Shown here one piece after another: positions 13,531 to 47,877 of a stretch of DNA of 64,000 bases. Each line of letters starts with the position of its first letter. The stretch's first letter is position 1. Under the pieces are notes generated by a model that worked only from the letters and a program-made list of their open reading frames with translations, made no database searches and was not told the DNA's origin. The DNA comes from an uncultured Eubacteriales bacterium. Lineage in GTDB: Bacteria > Acidobacteriota > Aminicenantia > Aminicenantales > Aminicenantaceae. A program made the translations under genes and the position numbers. The stretch spans positions 890 through 64,889 of the forward strand of contig CAYFWF010000047.1 of assembly GCA_964346815.1 (NCBI GenBank), given 5' to 3'.

Positions 13531-13774
13531 GTCCTATTTCCGCTCTCATTTTTTTCCGTCAAGTCTACTCACCAGCAGAAGTCACGGGATTAAATCCTAT
13601 GACTCCTAGTTTAATTCCAGGGACTTCTCAGGGACAAAAACATGACAAAATAGACCAAAACTGATTGTTTACCCTTGTTTTCGTCTATTTGCCGTGGTGA
13701 CATTAAATATTATGTTTTCAAAGGATTAGTGCCGAGGTCCGGACTCGAACTGGTACGCAGGCTCACTTACGAGC

Positions 13775-13787
13775 GATTTTAAGTCCC
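13775..13787. repeat. 13-bp direct repeat GATTTTAAGTCCC (copy 1) = anticodon stem-loop of tRNA-Leu
   Basis: Exact 13-nt match with 13965-13977; also present in intact tRNA at 2378-2390. Confidence 0.9.
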
Positions 13788-13964
13788 CTGTTCCATCAAA
13801 AATCCACCGTGTCCTTCTTGTGTCCCTCTTCTGCACAGGAGTATGCAGACTATACAGATAATTGGGAAAATACACATCTCCCTATTTTTCCAAAATCTGC
13901 TGATTTTTCAGTAAGTTACTGGCTTTTAATGCTTTACAGAAAAACTCGAATTCTCTTTCCTGAT

Positions 13965-13977
13965 GATTTTAAGTCCC
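13965..13977. repeat. 13-bp direct repeat GATTTTAAGTCCC (copy 2)
   Basis: Exact match; flanks the 177-bp insert. Confidence 0.9.
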
Positions 13978-14257
13978 TTGCGTCTACCAATTCCGCCACC
14001 CCGGCATACCAAGTGAGGGGATTATATCATAATCCTAAAACCCCAACAAGCTCTGGGAATTTCCATGCAGTCCACTCCTTACAAGGATTGCTTCAATCCA
14101 TATATCGACCCGCGTTGACATCGATGACTTCTTTCCATTCTTCGCCCTCTATGGACAGCAAAAACGAATGAGGCCCCGAGGTTCCCGCAGTATGATCCGA
14201 GTTGACATGGACCCAGACAGTGATAGAATAAGTTTAGAAGTGGGAGTGTTTGAAACG

Positions 14258-16428: not shown

Positions 16429-16509
16429 AACAAAACTTTGCTCTCTGCAAAGTTTTCACATATTTTTCCATTTTTTATAACTTCCAGCAAAGTTCATTTC
16501 GCTTTGTTT

Positions 16510-16786
16510 CAAAGTGAGGAGAAATAAAACTTGGAATAAAGGAGCAGGGAAATGTGGAAGCGACATTGAAGATTTAGCCTTCCAGAACCGCCCTGCGAGG
16601 GAATCCGATCTCGTCGGACTCCGAGGATGTATTGAGCACGACAATTCCGAAGATTTGAAACTCGGCTTAACATAGAATAACAACAAAGGACTTGAATTGA
16701 TCATGCGGAGTTCCGCAGGCGCCGAGAAGGACGGTGAAGGAATGGCGTTAAAAATCTGAACTAAAGCGAAGACATTTCCCTGCTCC
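16510..16786 (+). repeat. intergenic repeat element, copy A (full length; inner TIR 16541-16555 / 16772-16786)
   Basis: GGAGCAGGGAAATGT at 5' end pairs perfectly with ACATTTCCCTGCTCC at 3' end; conserved leader CAAAGTGAGGAGAAATAAAA; conserved blocks shared with copy at 38553. Confidence 0.7.
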
Positions 16787-17162
16787 CTATGACAATACCT
16801 CCCTCCATTCATTTTAAGAGAACCTTAATTCTTTACATCATCAACGCGTAAATCAAGCCTCACCATTTCCACAGCAGTTTGGATAACTTCCAACCAAGCT
16901 AGTCAGGGACCACCCAGTACGAACGGGCATGATGAGCGGAGTGTGTCGATATCATTAAAAGAGATTGCTTCACCATCAGAGGTGGTTCGCAATGACAACG
17001 GGCTTCGCTGGGGAAAAAAGCCGGGGACGAATCAGCTTGCCTGACTGTTCCCGCAGAGTGGTTTTTGAGAGGGTTTCATGAAGGGGCTTGATAATGTTGC
17101 TCGTTTGAGCAAAAATGAACAGAGATCGGGTGTATGAGTATTCAAGAAAGGAGACCTCGGGC

Positions 17163-19979
17163 ATGAACAAACCGAAGTTTTTCTTCTTCTTATCGGGTCT
17201 CTTCTTCCTTATCGGGAGCATTATTTATGCTATCGAAACCGGTGAAATAAAAGGAAAAGTCGTGGATGTGAACGGCGATGTTCTGCCCGGGGTTCAGGTC
17301 ACCGCCGAAAGCCCTAACCTCCAAGGCATCCGAACCGCTATATCAACGAATAACGGAGATTTTTCCTTTCCACTCCTTCCGGTAGGGAAATACACCCTGA
17401 CGTTCAAGCTCGAAGGGTTCAATCCCGTTATCCTGGAGGAAGTTCTCGTTCGATTGGGCAGAGTGACGAATCTGACTGTCACCATGAAAATCTCCGAACT
17501 TCAGGAAGAGGTGGTGGTGACGGCTTCGCCTCCCCTCATCGATAAAACATCCACAGATACGAGTTATCTCTTTAGTGAAAAAGAGCTGGAAAAAATTCCA
17601 GTCCAGACCCGCAACATCGTGGATGTGACGAAATTTACCCCTGGAGTGACAGGGGTCCGAATCAATACCCGCCGCGGCGTAGCCACACAAGGACAGCCAA
17701 GTTTCAGAGGAGAAGGAGAAGAAGGAAACACGTGGATAGTGGACGGACTTGCCATCAGCGGAGTGCGGCTCAAGAATGCGGGCGTTCCTATAAACTTCGA
17801 TTCTCTCGACGAGGTTCAAATCATTTCCGATCCATTCAGTCCTGAATACGGACCTGCCTACGGCGGAATCATCAACATGGTCACGAAGAGCGGGAGCAAT
17901 GATTTTAGCGGAGAGTTTTCCCTCGTTTTCACGAACAAAGGACTCCAATCCGCCCGTCAGGAGCAACTGGCAATCGTCAGCGAACCGTTCTCTTTTTCCA
18001 ACTATAACTGGTATTTCAATTTGGGCGGTCCCCTGATCAAAGACAAACTCTGGTTCTTCGCTTCCAATAACTTCTTCACGGATACAGAAGAGACCCGGAA
18101 TACCACTGTGGACTACTTCGAAGTTCCTGGCGGGAGACTCAATACCCGCAACAATAATGTGTTTCTCAAGCTGAGTTACGCAATGAACGACAATCATCAT
18201 ATAAGTCTGACATCCGTGTTCAACAAATCCTTAGGCCAAAAGGGGGGCACAGGAATTCCGGATCTGTATGAAGACCACAGATTCACCGACCTCGTTTTCC
18301 GGCTGAACTACAAGGGGATCCTCGACGCAACGACCTTTGTAGAAGCGGGATTCGGGCTGGTCAACCGGGATGACCTGAAGGAGCCCCAGAATGGGGATCT
18401 CGGTCCGGCCCAGTATTATATCGAGGATCTGGCAAGAAACATCCATAACAGCTATGGATATGTCATCGATGACCAATACAGATGGGATTTCAATGTGAAG
18501 CTCACAAAATATTTCGATACCCCGAACTTCGGCCACCATGAAATCAATCTCGGATTCGAATACACCTCTTTTGGATCGGAATTTGTAGTGGATTTCTCCG
18601 GCCAGGATGAGGACATATTCCCCCATAATGGATTCGATAACGGAACAAAGTACTATTTCACATCATGGAAAGAAGGAGCAAAGACTCCGACTTTTTTTTA
18701 TGAATACGGAGCTTTCAACTTCACAAATTCTTCCCGCGGCATGGGGATCTACATCAAAGATAAGATGACCGTAGGAAGATTCACTTTTATGGCAGGCTTC
18801 CGCAGCCAAACCCAAGCATGTCTCGACGAAAACAAAGAACGGCTCTGGTCCTGGGGTCTCAGCGACTTTTTCGCTCCCCGGCTTTCTGCCGCTTTAGATG
18901 TGACAGGTGATGGGAAAAACGTCCTGAAACTGGGATGGGGAAGATTCTCTGACTACATCACAACCATGCCCTTGGGGCTTTTAAGTTCCGGGGCAGGTCT
19001 GAGTTTCCGGAACTTCAGCTGGATAGGCCCCATCAATCCCACTGATTCCGAACGCCGCGATCCTTCGAACTGGAACTTTGAAGTCGAACAAAAGCTGCAA
19101 GCCTTCGAAATTTCCAGCGGTTTAAAGCCCAACTTTCTTACCCGATATTTGATCCAATTCGACAGGAGGATCGGAACAAACTGGGCCCTCAGCGCAAGAT
19201 ATGTCCATTCGAGCGCCGATGACCTTCTCGAAGTTCTGGCCCTTTTCGATCCTGTCACACTCTATAAATTTCTCTACGATAATTTTGAACACAAGAGAAG
19301 AAATTACAATGGATTCGAGATAGAATTGAACGGAAGAATCGGAGGCTCATTCTTTTTGAACGCTTCATACAGCCATGCATCCGCCAAGGGAACGAATCCA
19401 GGCCAAGTGGAGACAGGCTCCTGGAGCCAGGAAGAAGGAAGCACCAATTTTTTGGGGCTTTTCGGCAATCATCTTTATGTTCCCAGTCTTCCTGAGCTGA
19501 AAGAGATAAAAGAATGGGCAGACCGGTCACTCGGCGGACTCGGGGGGAGGGGGATCGGAGATGAAGGCTGGTATGGAAAGCTCCCCTACTCTATAGACCA
19601 CAGCGTTAAAATCAACGCCATATACTTCGCTCCTTACAAGATGACCTTTTCCTCGGCGTTCGAATATATCTCGGGATATTACTGGGAGAAACTGGGTTAT
19701 GTGCCTTTCTTCGGAGGATATTACTCCTTTCCCGAAGGTCGAGGAACTCAAAAGACTCCCGGCCATTATTATCTCGATCTAGGAATAGAGAAAGAGATCC
19801 TCTTGAAAAGCCTCCGCCTTCCTGAAACAATGGCCCTCATATTGAGATTCGATGTATTGAATCTGCTGAACAGCCAGAAACCGATTTCCTATGTTAAGGA
19901 AGACATCCCGATCTTCGGACATGTTTGGGCCAAGCAGCAGCCCAGGCAAGCTCGTGTTACGGTCAGGTTGAAGTGGTAA
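17163..19979 (+). CDS. TonB-dependent receptor-like outer-membrane protein with N-terminal carboxypeptidase-regulatory-like domain
   Basis: Signal peptide; CarbopepD_reg-like segment (GKVVDVNGDVLPGVQVTAE...GKYTLTFKLEGF); plug-like region; C-terminus ends in aromatic W; AAGGAGA RBS. Confidence 0.75.
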   Translation: MNKPKFFFFLSGLFFLIGSIIYAIETGEIKGKVVDVNGDVLPGVQVTAESPNLQGIRTAISTNNGDFSFPLLPVGKYTLTFKLEGFNPVILEEVLVRLGRVTNLTVTMKISELQEEVVVTASPPLIDKTSTDTSYLFSEKELEKIPVQTRNIVDVTKFTPGVTGVRINTRRGVATQGQPSFRGEGEEGNTWIVDGLAISGVRLKNAGVPINFDSLDEVQIISDPFSPEYGPAYGGIINMVTKSGSNDFSGEFSLVFTNKGLQSARQEQLAIVSEPFSFSNYNWYFNLGGPLIKDKLWFFASNNFFTDTEETRNTTVDYFEVPGGRLNTRNNNVFLKLSYAMNDNHHISLTSVFNKSLGQKGGTGIPDLYEDHRFTDLVFRLNYKGILDATTFVEAGFGLVNRDDLKEPQNGDLGPAQYYIEDLARNIHNSYGYVIDDQYRWDFNVKLTKYFDTPNFGHHEINLGFEYTSFGSEFVVDFSGQDEDIFPHNGFDNGTKYYFTSWKEGAKTPTFFYEYGAFNFTNSSRGMGIYIKDKMTVGRFTFMAGFRSQTQACLDENKERLWSWGLSDFFAPRLSAALDVTGDGKNVLKLGWGRFSDYITTMPLGLLSSGAGLSFRNFSWIGPINPTDSERRDPSNWNFEVEQKLQAFEISSGLKPNFLTRYLIQFDRRIGTNWALSARYVHSSADDLLEVLALFDPVTLYKFLYDNFEHKRRNYNGFEIELNGRIGGSFFLNASYSHASAKGTNPGQVETGSWSQEEGSTNFLGLFGNHLYVPSLPELKEIKEWADRSLGGLGGRGIGDEGWYGKLPYSIDHSVKINAIYFAPYKMTFSSAFEYISGYYWEKLGYVPFFGGYYSFPEGRGTQKTPGHYYLDLGIEKEILLKSLRLPETMALILRFDVLNLLNSQKPISYVKEDIPIFGHVWAKQQPRQARVTVRLKW

Positions 19980-29063: not shown

Positions 29064-29119
29064 CCGCATCAAAAGCATCCTGCAATCCGCCATATAACCC
29101 AACATCGCTTCTCCAAACG

Positions 29120-29290
29120 CTGTTGGACTTGGATAGAAAGCTACGGAGTTGGCCGCGAGGACTGTATGAGCGCGGAATGATCGACTGGAGTGGCCTGAGA
29201 ATGGCAGAGAACAATGAGGGGCAACAACAGATAACCATGCGGAGTTCCGCGGGGCCGAGAAGTTTGGTGAGGGTAGACACTTACTATGGC
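29120..29290 (+). repeat. variant/degenerate copy D of the intergenic repeat family (internal blocks only, no terminal inverted repeats)
   Basis: Shares TGTATGAGCGCGG, AACAA..., ATGCGGAGTTCCGCGGGGCCGAGAAG and GGTGAGGG blocks with copy A (16640-16750). Confidence 0.45.
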
Positions 29291-32058: not shown

Positions 32059-34479
32059 TCAGCTTTCGCGCACTTTGGCGATCGAGACTACCCTATCGCC
32101 CTTTTCAAGGTTGATAATTCTTACTCCTTGAGTAGCCCGGCTCAATGGCCTGATCTGTTCGGTTTTAATCCGGATGACCTTTCCGAGTTCAGTGATTAAG
32201 AGCATTTCTTCATCGGAAATCCCGACAATCCCGACAGCCTTCCCTATTTTGGATCCGATACGGAGATTGAGGACTCCTTTTCCGCCCCTTCGATGTCTGG
32301 GATAAAGCTCCACAGGGGTTTTTTTCCCATATCCTTTCTCACTGGCTGTGAAGATGTATTTTTCAGCCTCTCCAGCAACCACCATCCCTATGATCTCATC
32401 CTTTTTGTTTAAGGACAGGGCTTTCACTCCCGCAGCCTGTCGGCCCATAGGTCTGACATCGCTTTCTTTAAACCGGATAGCCTTTCCCAATTTTGTCCCG
32501 ATAATGATATCTTTGTTTCCGTCTGTGAGCTTCGCAGAGATCAACTCAGACTTAGGAGTCATTCCGATGGCAATGATCCCCCCCCTCCGTATATGGCGAA
32601 ATTCACTCAACCGCGTTTTTTTGATCCGGCCGTCCGAACAGAGCATAACGATATATTCATTCTCGGGAAAATCTCTCACTGCAACAACAGAGCTTGTCTT
32701 CTCACCAGGACTCATCTCTACAAGATTTCTAATGGATTTTCCCCGACTCGAAACACCCAAATCCGGAATAAGTAAAGCTTTCAGCCAATAGAGATTGCCT
32801 TGATTGGTAAAAATAAGAAGATAGCTATGGGTAGAACTGATGAAGAGATCCTGCACCACATCCTCGGGTTTCATCCTGATGCCTCTTCGTCCTTTCCCCC
32901 CGCGGCTTTGAAAGTGATAATAGCTCAGAGAGGTTCTCTTGACATATCCAGAGGAAGTGTAAGTCAGCACCACATCCTCTTCCTTGATCAAATCTTCTGC
33001 CTTCATGTCTAAGACTTCTTCTGCGACGATCTCTGACTTTCTCTCATCCTGATATTCTTTTTTTATCTGTGTGAGTTCGTCGACGATGATATCCAATATG
33101 AGCTCTTCGCTTCCGAGTATTTTTCTCAGTTTCGTTATCAGCTTTTTCAACTCCTGGTATTCCTTCAATATTTTATCCCTTTCCAACCGGGTTAACTTTT
33201 GAAGCTGCATTTCTAGAATAGCCTGAGCCTGGATTTTGCTTAAATTGAAATTCGCGATCAGTCCTCTTCTTGCTTGATCCACAGTGCGGGAAGCGCGGAT
33301 CAGCTTGATGACAGCATCCAGATGATCCAACGCGATGTTTAAGCCTTCCAGAATATGGGCTCTGTGTTCTGCTTTTTTCAACTCAAAACGCGTTCGGCGC
33401 CGTACCACATCCTGACGGTGGGAAATAAAATACCACATCATATCGAGAAGCCCCATCACTTTGGGTTGCTTCTCTACGATCGCCAGCATGATGATCCCGA
33501 AAGATGTCTGAAGAGCGGTGTGCTTGTACAGGTTGTTGAGAATAACCTCGGGAAACTCTCCCTTCCTGATCTCGACCACGATTCTCATCCCTTCTCTGTC
33601 CGACTCATCCCTGATATCCGCAATCCCCCCCAGTTTCTTGTTGTTGACGAGATCTGCAATATTTTCCAGCAGCCTGCCTTTGTTGACCTGATAGGGTATT
33701 TCGGTGATAACGATCCGATCTCTCTCGTTTTTTCGTCCTCTTTCGATCATGGCACGGGCTCTTAAACAGATAATACCTCTTCCTGTTTTATATGCGCTTT
33801 TTATACCTTCGGTGCCGAAAATATATCCCCCTGTGGGAAAATCAGGCCCACCCACAAACTCCATTATTTTTTCCAAGCCAGCCTTCGGATGTTTGATAAG
33901 GTATACGATTCCGTCGATTATCTCTCCCAAATTATGAGGGGGGATATTGGTCGCCATTCCCACAGCGATTCCTGATCCACCATTTATCAGCAGATTTGGA
34001 AATTTTGCCGGTAAAACCTCGGGCATTTGAAGGCTTTCGTCATAATTGGGAACAAAATTGACTGTGTCCTTTTCGATATCTGCGAGCAGCTCATGGGTGA
34101 TTTTTCTCATCCTGACTTCGGTATAGCGCATGGCCGCAGGAGGATCTCCATCTATGGAGCCGAAATTACCCTGCCCATCCACGAGGGGGTACCTCAGACT
34201 GAAGCTTTGAGCCATCCTTACCAGCGTATCATAGACAGCCATCTCACCATGGGGATGGTATTTACCGATCACGTCTCCTACGATGCGGGCAGACTTTTTG
34301 TAAGGCTTGTTCCATACATTGTTCACATCGTGCATGGCATACAGAGTGCGCCTGTGGACCGGCTTCAATCCGTCTTTGATGTCAGGAATGGCTCTTCCTA
34401 TGATTACGCTCATGGCATAATCCAGATAGGACTGCCGCATTTCTTTTTCGAGGCTCACCACCTCCAACTTGCTGCTCAT
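32059..34479 (-). CDS. gyrA: DNA gyrase subunit A
   Basis: N-terminal [16 protein letters not shown]...AAMRYTE active-site region; C-terminal beta-pinwheel repeats. Confidence 0.95.
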
Positions 34480-38334: not shown

Positions 38335-38412
38335 CGGGGCGTAGCGCAGTCTGGTCAGCGCACAGCGTTCGGGACGCTGGGGTCATGGGTTCGAATCCCA
38401 TCGCCCCGACCA
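38335..38412 (+). tRNA. tRNA-Pro(CGG) with encoded CCA
   Basis: cggggcg/cgccccg acceptor, anticodon loop uuCGGga, GGTTCGAATCC T-loop, terminal CCA. Confidence 0.85.
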
Positions 38413-38552
38413 GTTTCTTCTCCATCCCTTCATCGCTCGAAACAGACATAAATTACTATCCAAAGGGCATCCTTGGGAATTCGATAGAATCTTGAGCAAT
38501 GAGGACCGAACGGACCGCGAAATTTTTTTACGGGAAATAAAATCGGGATAAA

Positions 38553-38805
38553 GGTGCAGGGAAATGTCGGAGCGGCATTGAAGATTTAGCCATTACTGCC
38601 GTTCTTCGAGGGGATCTGACATAGTCAGACGGCGATGTTGTATTGAGCACGACTTTGCCAAAGGATACCAGTTGTGCGCAGGCACGGGAACAAAGGATAA
38701 AGGAGGAGAGTTAGGTGTTGTCGTGCACAGTTCAGCGCCGCCGAGAAGGGCGGCAACGGAATGGCGTTAAAAATCTGAACTAGAGCGAAGACATTTCCCC
38801 GCACC
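38553..38805 (+). repeat. intergenic repeat element, copy B (full length; leader 38525-38552; inverted outer motif CCGTCACTTTGGG at 38825-38837)
   Basis: 5' GGTGCAGGGAAATGT / 3' ACATTTCCCCGCACC; internal TGTATTGAGCACGAC, AACAAAGGA, GCCGAGAAG and 3' GGAATGGCGTTAAAAATCTGAACTAGAGCGAAGACATTTCCC blocks shared with copy A. Confidence 0.7.
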
Positions 38806-38910
38806 TTAGATGGATACTTCATCCCCGTCACTTTGGGACATACCCAAAAAATGAAATAATTACATTAACTGTAAAAATAGGGAAACTAGAGTATAGGATT
38901 GGATTTTTGA

Positions 38911-46899: not shown

Positions 46900-47160
46900 T
46901 TTTTCACCCCAAAGTGAGCATTTCCAAAACCGCGATAGCGTAACAGTCAGGTAAGCTGATTCGTCAGCCCGTGGATTTTCCCCAGCGAGGAAAATCCACT
47001 TATTCCTCGGCTCGCTCTCCCTACCTGCCAGTAAAGCTTGCTTTCCTTGCCCGCTCGCCTCCGGATGGCTTCCTAACCAGCTTACCTGACCGCTGTTGGA
47101 TTTGTCACGGTTTTGGGAATGCTTCCCAATCCAAACGAGATCTGGGAAAAACAAACTGAA
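46900..47160. other. structured intergenic region (13-bp long-range inverted repeat GTCAGGTAAGCTG/CAGCTTACCTGAC enclosing nested hairpins)
   Basis: Arms at 46936-46948 and 47068-47080; inner 9-bp hairpin GTGGATTTT...AAAATCCAC at 46961-46989; additional hairpin TTGGGAATGCTTCCCAA at 47113-47129. Confidence 0.3.
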
Positions 47161-47761: not shown

Positions 47762-47789
47762 CTGTTCTCCTCTCAAAAATTGGCTTCGC

Positions 47790-47865
47790 CCCAAAGTGAC
47801 GGAAAATAAATTTGCGAGAGAGGTGCAGGGAAATGACGGGGCGACATGGAAGATTCGGCCTTACG
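47790..47865 (+). repeat. truncated copy C of the intergenic repeat family (leader + 5' ~45 nt only)
   Basis: CCCAAAGTGACGGAAAATAAA leader and GGTGCAGGGAAATGACGGGGCGACATGGAAGATTCGGCC match the 5' ends of copies A/B; similarity stops where the downstream gene ends. Confidence 0.5.
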
Positions 47866-47877
47866 GTACTGTCTCAT

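Follow-up and report, generated by a model that had tools for sequence, protein, structure and literature searches.

A probable one-ended copy of a MITE-type element with structured-RNA cargo downstream of a tRNA-Pro gene in an Aminicenantes-type bacterium

The window, by which we mean the whole 64,000-nt stretch of DNA analysed here, contains four related sequences on its plus strand, referred to as copies A, B, C and D. Copy B lies downstream of a tRNA-Pro(CGG) gene. It has a structured RNA core that is flanked by a leader and a trailer, and the inverted repeats found at the ends of complete relatives (TIRs) are present as a remnant on the left and as an intact repeat on the right. The following features were assigned.

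38335..38412, plus strand: tRNA-Pro(CGG), found by ARAGORN and Rfam; neighbour of copy B, outside the element
38530..38552, plus strand: copy B leader ACGGGAAATAAAATCGGGATAAA, a 6-nt left-TIR remnant (ACGGGA) followed by a 17-nt leader with a TAAAAT box
38553..38805, plus strand: copy B structured RNA core, 253 nt, assigned by covariance model R1, fold z-score and family covariation
38553-38567 with 38791-38805, plus strand: closing helix P1 of copy B, a 15-bp inverted repeat with one A-C mismatch
38582-38587 (AGATTT) with 38771-38776 (AAATCT), plus strand: invariant P2 of copy B
38758-38780, plus strand: invariant 3' block GGAATGGCGTTAAAAATCTGAAC of copy B
38806..38821, plus strand: copy B trailer from the RNA to the right TIR, by alignment
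38822..38845, plus strand: intact right TIR TCCCCGTCACTTTGGGACATACCC of copy B, 2/19 mismatches to the TIR consensus
38846..38853, plus strand: AAAAAATG, the expected right half of an 8-bp target duplication at copy B, from the fixed offset in 27 complete elements
16500-16826, plus strand: copy A as a whole, RNA intact, both TIRs eroded
16500..16522, plus strand: eroded left TIR CGCTTTGTTTCAAAGTGAGGAGA of copy A, 4/19 mismatches to the TIR consensus
16541..16786, plus strand: intact 246-nt structured RNA core of copy A, closed by a perfect 15-bp helix
16803..16826, plus strand: strongly eroded right TIR CTCCATTCATTTTAAGAGAACCTT of copy A, 6/16 conserved columns changed
47782..47873, plus strand: copy C, a 5' stump with left TIR, leader and ~50 nt of RNA (nhmmer E=1e-18 over model positions 21-132)
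47782-47804, plus strand: left TIR GGCTTCGCCCCAAAGTGACGGAA of copy C
29110..29276, plus strand: copy D, a diverged apical domain only (P4-P6 region; nhmmer E=1.3e-5)

The original prediction had copy B start at 38525, 113 nt after tRNA-Pro, with a leader common to copies A, B and C. The tRNA gene was confirmed, and the leader is indeed common to the three copies (16518-16540 in copy A and 47799-47821 in copy C, both aligning with that of copy B), but in copy B it starts at 38530. A motif expected ~20 nt past the 3' end of copy B was found as CCGTCACTTTGGG at 38825-38837, within the right TIR and 19 nt beyond the end of the RNA (38805). Its reverse complement CCCAAAGTGACGG lies ahead of copy C at 47790-47802 (predicted at 47791-47803). 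The related motifs proposed before copy A and near 46909 are CAAAGTGAGG at 16511-16520 and CCCAAAGTGAGC at 46907-46918. The predicted positions were accurate to within 1-5 nt. In the window, the inner motif GGNGCAGGGAAATGT has five matches with up to two mismatches where 0.51 are expected, and none of 100 shuffles reached five. The outer 13-mer is not significant in the window alone (three matches versus 1.04 expected; 4/100 shuffles reach three), and one of its matches, at 33453-33465 inside an ORF, is probably due to chance. The outer repeat is convincing only through relatives outside the window; there it is inverted at both ends of 25 oriented complete elements.

The window copies differ in what they have kept. 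The ends of the copy B unit are the 15-bp inverted repeat GGTGCAGGGAAATGT with ACATTTCCCCGCACC, and its RNA core is intact and belongs to a sub-lineage that copy B has in common with locus L072. Alignment to 13 complete elements revealed that the left TIR has lost ~17 nt from its outer side and that ...GCGAAATTTTTTT stands in their place. 9/16 conserved columns are changed in the left TIR versus 1/16 in the right TIR. The RNA of copy C starts at 47822, and this stump is truncated inside an 83-nt gap that separates two minus-strand genes. Copy D sits between rpoD and tRNA-Met and has neither TIRs nor basal helices. Both outer repeats are intact in none of the window copies (two eroded repeats in A, only the right one in B, only the left one in C), and no recognisable target-site duplication was found at any of them. 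At copy B, the offset would make AAAAAATG the right-hand half of a duplication whose left partner was lost. Transposition is now impossible for all four window copies, in the case of copy B because its left TIR is lost. Copy B is likely to be an old one-ended copy of a MITE with structured-RNA cargo.

Relatives were collected by two scans. One genome per species was scanned with an exact pattern, which gave 14 loci in four MAGs, with 3-5 copies each; one of these MAGs is labelled Candidatus Aminicenantes and three bear no label beyond the generic 'uncultured Eubacteriales'. An independent 3' pattern was used on metagenome contigs and gave at least 117 loci. The total sample comprised at least 131 related loci with 143 copies in ~1 Mb of DNA. 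Both collecting patterns are exact-match and lie inside the RNA, and the apparent invariance of those two blocks is therefore inflated. No relatives were found among viral contigs and plasmids, where a single TIR match in a coding region is attributed to chance, and the motif strings had only unrelated eukaryotic matches in the literature. Judged from the relatives, a complete element measures ~270-330 bp and is composed of a left TIR GGCTTTGTCCCAAAGTGACGGGA, a ~17-nt A-rich leader, a 190-250-nt RNA on the plus strand, a ~15-nt trailer and the inverted right TIR. The family includes short forms (~190-nt RNA), standard forms of the window type (~250 nt), insertion-bearing forms and internally deleted 'mini' forms.

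The mini derivatives are recurrent and measure ~110-130 bp from TIR to TIR (L012:6486-6620; also in L077, L027, L054, L016, L106, L116 and L126). They retain both TIRs, P1, which is still compensated, and only the GAAUGGCGUUAAAAAUCUGAAC..GAGCGAAG block, and they seem to have originated by deletion between the similar strings GGGAATGG and GAGAATGG. We also noticed secondary insertions inside the RNA of some members, located in the P5 hairpin (L002:1370-1690, L004, L007, L009) or seen in L012:3740-3870, L052 and at the contig ends of L001 and L005. In one type, a ~140-nt perfect long hairpin takes the place of the P5 loop; the second type is a GGAGGGGGAAC...GTTCCCCCTCC repeat, which also breaks assemblies at contig ends. 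In L009 (3869-5931), a gene of the Na+/H+ antiporter family (486 aa) lies between two inverted element copies, one mini and one standard. This arrangement resembles a composite transposon, and it may be a coincidence.

The TIR is ~23 bp long and is present at both ends of complete copies; the flank motif of the original prediction is its core. In the 25 oriented elements 511 of 675 TIR cells are complementary. Other lineages have the homologous, diverged TIRs GCATTTCCAAATCCGTGATA and GGTTCTCTTCCATATTGTGTGGG. In the ~1 Mb of DNA from relatives, nearly every occurrence of the motif is attached to an element, which runs counter to a random scatter over unrelated sites. The 8-mers that flank the TIRs at a fixed offset match perfectly in 8/27 elements and at seven or more positions in 17/27, compared to 1% and 6%, respectively, in shuffled pairings. 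These 8-mers are 92% A+T. Further support for mobility is provided by pairs of copies from the same MAG. L003 and L010 are 94.8% identical and L006 and L013 98%, while their 200-bp flanks are unrelated (~57%), and the similarity ends exactly at the TIR ends. Moreover, the tRNA-Pro/DUF362 spacer of L010, orthologous to the window locus, lacks copy B, a single case of presence/absence. Among the matches listed, 141/143 copies are intergenic, and they show random orientation towards neighbouring genes.

Mismatches between left and right TIRs are of the G-U type in 42 and of the A-C type in 36 cases, without strand bias. On account of this ratio, TIR complementarity is a property of the DNA. The ORFs in the element are spurious stop-to-stop frames only, and deletion derivatives retain both TIRs. 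A MITE is a non-autonomous DNA transposon that is moved in trans by a transposase encoded elsewhere. TIRs, a duplication of fixed length, a small multi-copy unit without transposase ORF and presence/absence polymorphism were all found, and it is nearly certain that the family is a mobile element of the MITE type. The suggestion of a small mobile element was therefore right. The nested inverted repeats that had been proposed are real as well, the outer pair being the transposon TIR with its 8-bp duplications and the inner pair the closing helix of the structured RNA.

No autonomous element or transposase with matching TIRs was found in the window or in the at least 131 related loci (~1 Mb). A tblastn search of this ~1 Mb with Tnp26 gave nothing below E=1. 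Clustering of ORFs within 3 kb of the copies, a scan for ORFs flanked by inverted repeats and Pfam searches likewise yielded no transposase, and returned transporters, kinases and metabolic enzymes only. Transposases of several families, among them ISL3 and IS1595, generate 8-bp duplications. The element end GGCTTTGTCCCAAA agrees at 10/14 positions with the IS6/IS26 end consensus GGTTCTGTTGCAAA, including GG at positions 1-2 and G at position 7, with C instead of G at position 10. IS6/IS26 elements make 8-bp duplications (PMC6807381), and the IS1016-group of the IS1595 family has the ends GGGGCTGTACTAGA and A/T-rich 8-bp repeats (PMC12561309). Judging from the element ends, the transposase would be a DDE enzyme of the GG...TGT-end, 8-bp-duplication type, either IS6/IS26-like or IS1595/IS1016-like.

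A second foldback element of ~210 bp is present in the window at 46916-47125 (also at 17005-17049 on the minus strand), and CCCAAAGTGAGC abuts its left end. Its core is unrelated to the RNA-bearing family. In type, its TIRs (AGCATTTCCAAAACCG... and ...CGGTTTTGGGAATGCTTC) match the lineage-2 TIRs of that family, and partial relatives occur in L109, L115, L116, L131 and L043. The TIR type in common suggests that one type of transposase may move several types of cargo.

The RNA core was analysed with a consensus fold from a 33-sequence alignment of short forms. The fold has 51 pairs in eight helices, 25 of which pairs show compensatory double changes. Paired cells amount to 95.4%, compared to 36-53% when the partners are slid by 1-3 columns, and the covariation score is 0.384 versus 0.157 in shuffled and 0.06-0.11 in slid alignments. 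None of 500 shuffles reached any of the observed pairing measures. From the closing helix P1 the fold proceeds through the invariant P2 and P3 to P4, which leads into a three-way junction with the hairpins P5 and P6-P8. Free covariation is seen in P1, P4, P5 and P6; the sequence is invariant in P2 (AGAUUU with AAAUCU), in P3 and in several internal loops. Covariance model R1, built from the short forms, finds copy A (131 bits, E=4e-28) and copy B (102 bits, E=1e-21) on the plus strand only, and the fold z-score of the copy B core is -6.1. In a scan of the whole window at gathering score, no Rfam 15 family matches the element, and at E up to 10 Rfam gives noise only for copies A and B and one short-form relative.

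In paired columns of the plus strand, the ratio of G-U to A-C is 77:12 in short forms and 100:24 in standard forms. This excess identifies the plus strand as the folded strand, although such asymmetry is no strict proof of RNA since G-T wobble is tolerated in single-stranded DNA, too. The minus strand was considered as well on account of the A-C mismatch in P1 of copy B, which would be G-U on the other strand; the G-U:A-C ratio of the family and the covariance model reject it. Taken together, there is strong evidence that the core is constrained as RNA on one strand.

A consensus scan found no usable canonical sigma-70 promoter in the leaders, and a scan for sigma-70 sites and terminators found no intrinsic terminator. 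A -10-like TAWAWT box occurs in 17/84 leaders and 2/84 trailers, an excess that is suggestive only as a sign of a promoter, and a minority of copies have a TAAAAT-like box ~9 nt ahead of P1. The shared promoter-like leader that had been offered as an alternative was not borne out, given the lack of a sigma-70 site in the consensus scan and a -10-like box in just those 17 leaders.

The rival that fares best holds that the element is a plain MITE without functional RNA, and that the fold is a foldback by-product or a single-stranded-DNA structure of transposition or replication. We consider this unlikely. The element is clearly mobile, the recurrent mini forms still propagate with both TIRs, the leader scans found neither promoter nor terminator, and MITE transcripts generally give stable hairpins (PMC10969869), all as a plain MITE would lead one to expect. 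The fold is, however, no simple foldback: it has a three-way junction, internal loops of invariant sequence, and helices with covariation that spans deep lineages. On one strand of the core, G-U exceeds A-C by a factor of 4 to 6, and the TIRs show no such excess. DDE TIR transposons are not known to have a strand-specific single-stranded intermediate. Copy A also speaks against a plain MITE, for its core was kept while its TIRs erode (9/32 conserved columns changed in the TIRs versus 3/153 in the core, Fisher p=7e-6). This comparison concerns one copy, and internal gene conversion with other copies as donors could leave the same pattern as selection.

Much less probable is a chromosomal ncRNA family in which the outer repeats form an RNase III processing stem, as around rRNA, and are not transposon ends. 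The repeats would make a duplex of ~20 bp around the RNA, and L010 is changed on both arms (cccGaagtg with cacttCggg). Yet A+T-rich direct repeats of 8 bp, unrelated in sequence, adjoin the outer repeats, the similarity between copies stops exactly at the ends of the latter, the element is present or absent at orthologous sites, and the terminal sequence is like known insertion-sequence ends. The RNase III stem was ruled out by the target duplications together with the missing wobble bias (42:36) of the repeat mismatches.

Least probable of all is a link to tRNA genes, either as an ncRNA co-transcribed with tRNA-Pro or through tRNA-gene targeting, with the leader as promoter. In its favour, copy B follows tRNA-Pro at a distance of 113-118 nt on the same strand, copy D lies just upstream of tRNA-Met and 5/12 tRNAs of the sampled loci have an element within 300 bp. 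Against it, a tRNA lies within 300 bp of only 4/143 copies among the matches listed, and neither copy A nor copy C has one as a neighbour. The orientation to upstream genes is unbiased among the copies listed (41 same, 55 opposite). In L010, whose locus is syntenic with the tRNA-Pro/DUF362 region of the window, a separate copy lies on the opposite side, upstream of tRNA-Pro and in antisense orientation to it. The proximity to a tRNA, which the original prediction called typical of small mobile elements and co-transcribed ncRNAs, is incidental. The position of copy B probably reflects insertion into A+T-rich intergenic DNA, not co-transcription.

When ORFs within 3 kb of the copies were clustered, no conserved gene neighbour with fixed side, distance and strand was found. 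Genes for TonB-receptor-like proteins (CarboxypepD_reg + Plug) and MacB-like permeases are often near copies (window 17115-19979 and 12 other loci); these are probably abundant paralogues with A+T-rich spacers.

Another tRNA-like gene of the window was noted. The minus strand at 13728-14006 carries a tRNA-Leu(UAA)-like gene that ~175 nt interrupt behind the anticodon loop; GGGACTTAAAATC is found at either junction. Over its first 42 nt this gene has 100% identity to an intact tRNA-Leu (2331-2418) 11.6 kb away, and Rfam has no intron match for it. The split gene could be an integration scar or an island boundary.

The best-supported reading is that of a MITE family with a conserved structured-RNA cargo, to which we assign a probability of roughly 75%. 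A transposase encoded elsewhere would move the element in trans via the TIRs, making A+T-rich 8-bp duplications. The RNA would be transcribed from within the element, with TAAAAT ~9 nt before P1 as candidate -10 box. It would then act in trans, as suggested by copy A, which keeps its RNA although its TIRs decay, and probably as a protein-binding scaffold. Selection would retain it even once a copy has become immobile, and the contrast between core and TIRs in copy A is the chief argument for this. A more far-reaching proposal, which we put forward tentatively and hold to be somewhat less probable than its opposite, is that the cargo is a previously undescribed class of large structured RNA, spread as a 'mobile RNA gene' and retained after immobilisation for a role in trans. 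Such a role may be that of a protein-binding scaffold, a decoy or a ribozyme. In a radical variant, the RNA may participate in the transposition or regulation of its own element and would represent an RNA component for a TIR/DDE transposon.

MITEs are usually regarded as inert foldback DNA, and here a MITE of uncultured sediment bacteria (Aminicenantes-type) carries a complex RNA. The covariation support for this RNA equals that of many accepted ncRNA classes and it has no Rfam counterpart, making the core a candidate new RNA class. One and the same element allows constraint at the DNA level (TIRs) to be told apart from constraint at the RNA level (core). The family also calls for caution in annotation, as such copies would otherwise be named 'repeats' or 'orphan ncRNAs near tRNAs'. 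Should a function of the RNA in trans be confirmed, the family would show how DNA transposition can raise the number of ncRNA genes in bacteria and scatter them.

With respect to known transposons, the element has GG at positions 1-2, G at position 7 and 8-bp duplications in common with IS6/IS26 and differs from it at position 10, where the G that it lacks is highly conserved. The IS6/IS26 family includes MITEBth2 and MITEHarch3 (ISfinder). The A/T-rich 8-bp repeats of the IS1016-group (IS1595) fit the target preference of the present element as well as IS6/IS26 does. IS26 moves via cointegrate formation, and mobilisation of a MITE by such a route is not obvious. A structured RNA inside a transposable element is also found in the omega RNAs of IscB/TnpB (including HEARO), the IS110 bridge RNA and IS10 RNA-OUT. 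These systems differ from the present one in that IS200/605 and IS110 lack TIRs and 8-bp duplications, or in that the RNA is a short antisense RNA. The RNAs of these systems adjoin a nuclease or recombinase gene, unlike the present element, which has no such gene, and neither HEARO nor other Rfam models match it.

Among MITEs, Correia/NEMIS, ERIC, RUP and Coxiella QMITE1/2 are likewise non-coding and have TIRs, target-site duplications and A+T-rich intergenic targets. Prokaryotic MITEs give stable stem-loop transcripts, and some of these elements yield sRNAs (PMC10969869). A typical MITE folds by way of the TIR foldback itself, whereas here the TIRs show no constraint of the RNA type and strong structural selection acts, across deeply diverged lineages, on a separate RNA inside the element. 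Of the documented systems, bcr1 of the Bacillus cereus group comes closest (Okstad 2004; Klevan 2007). It is a non-autonomous mobile repeat with short direct repeats, the distribution of which differs between strains (PMC3184786). It is transcribed, and its RNA secondary structure is maintained by base-pair compensatory changes (PMC3184786). Both elements are non-autonomous and mobile and have an RNA fold with compensatory changes. There is no sequence similarity between the two, and their RNAs differ in complexity and in how deeply they are conserved. With ~155 bp, 5-bp direct repeats, a two-hairpin cruciform and a Firmicutes host, bcr1 contrasts with the 270-330 bp, 23-bp TIRs, 8-bp duplications, eight-helix RNA with three-way junction and invariant internal loops, and Aminicenantes-type host of the element described here.
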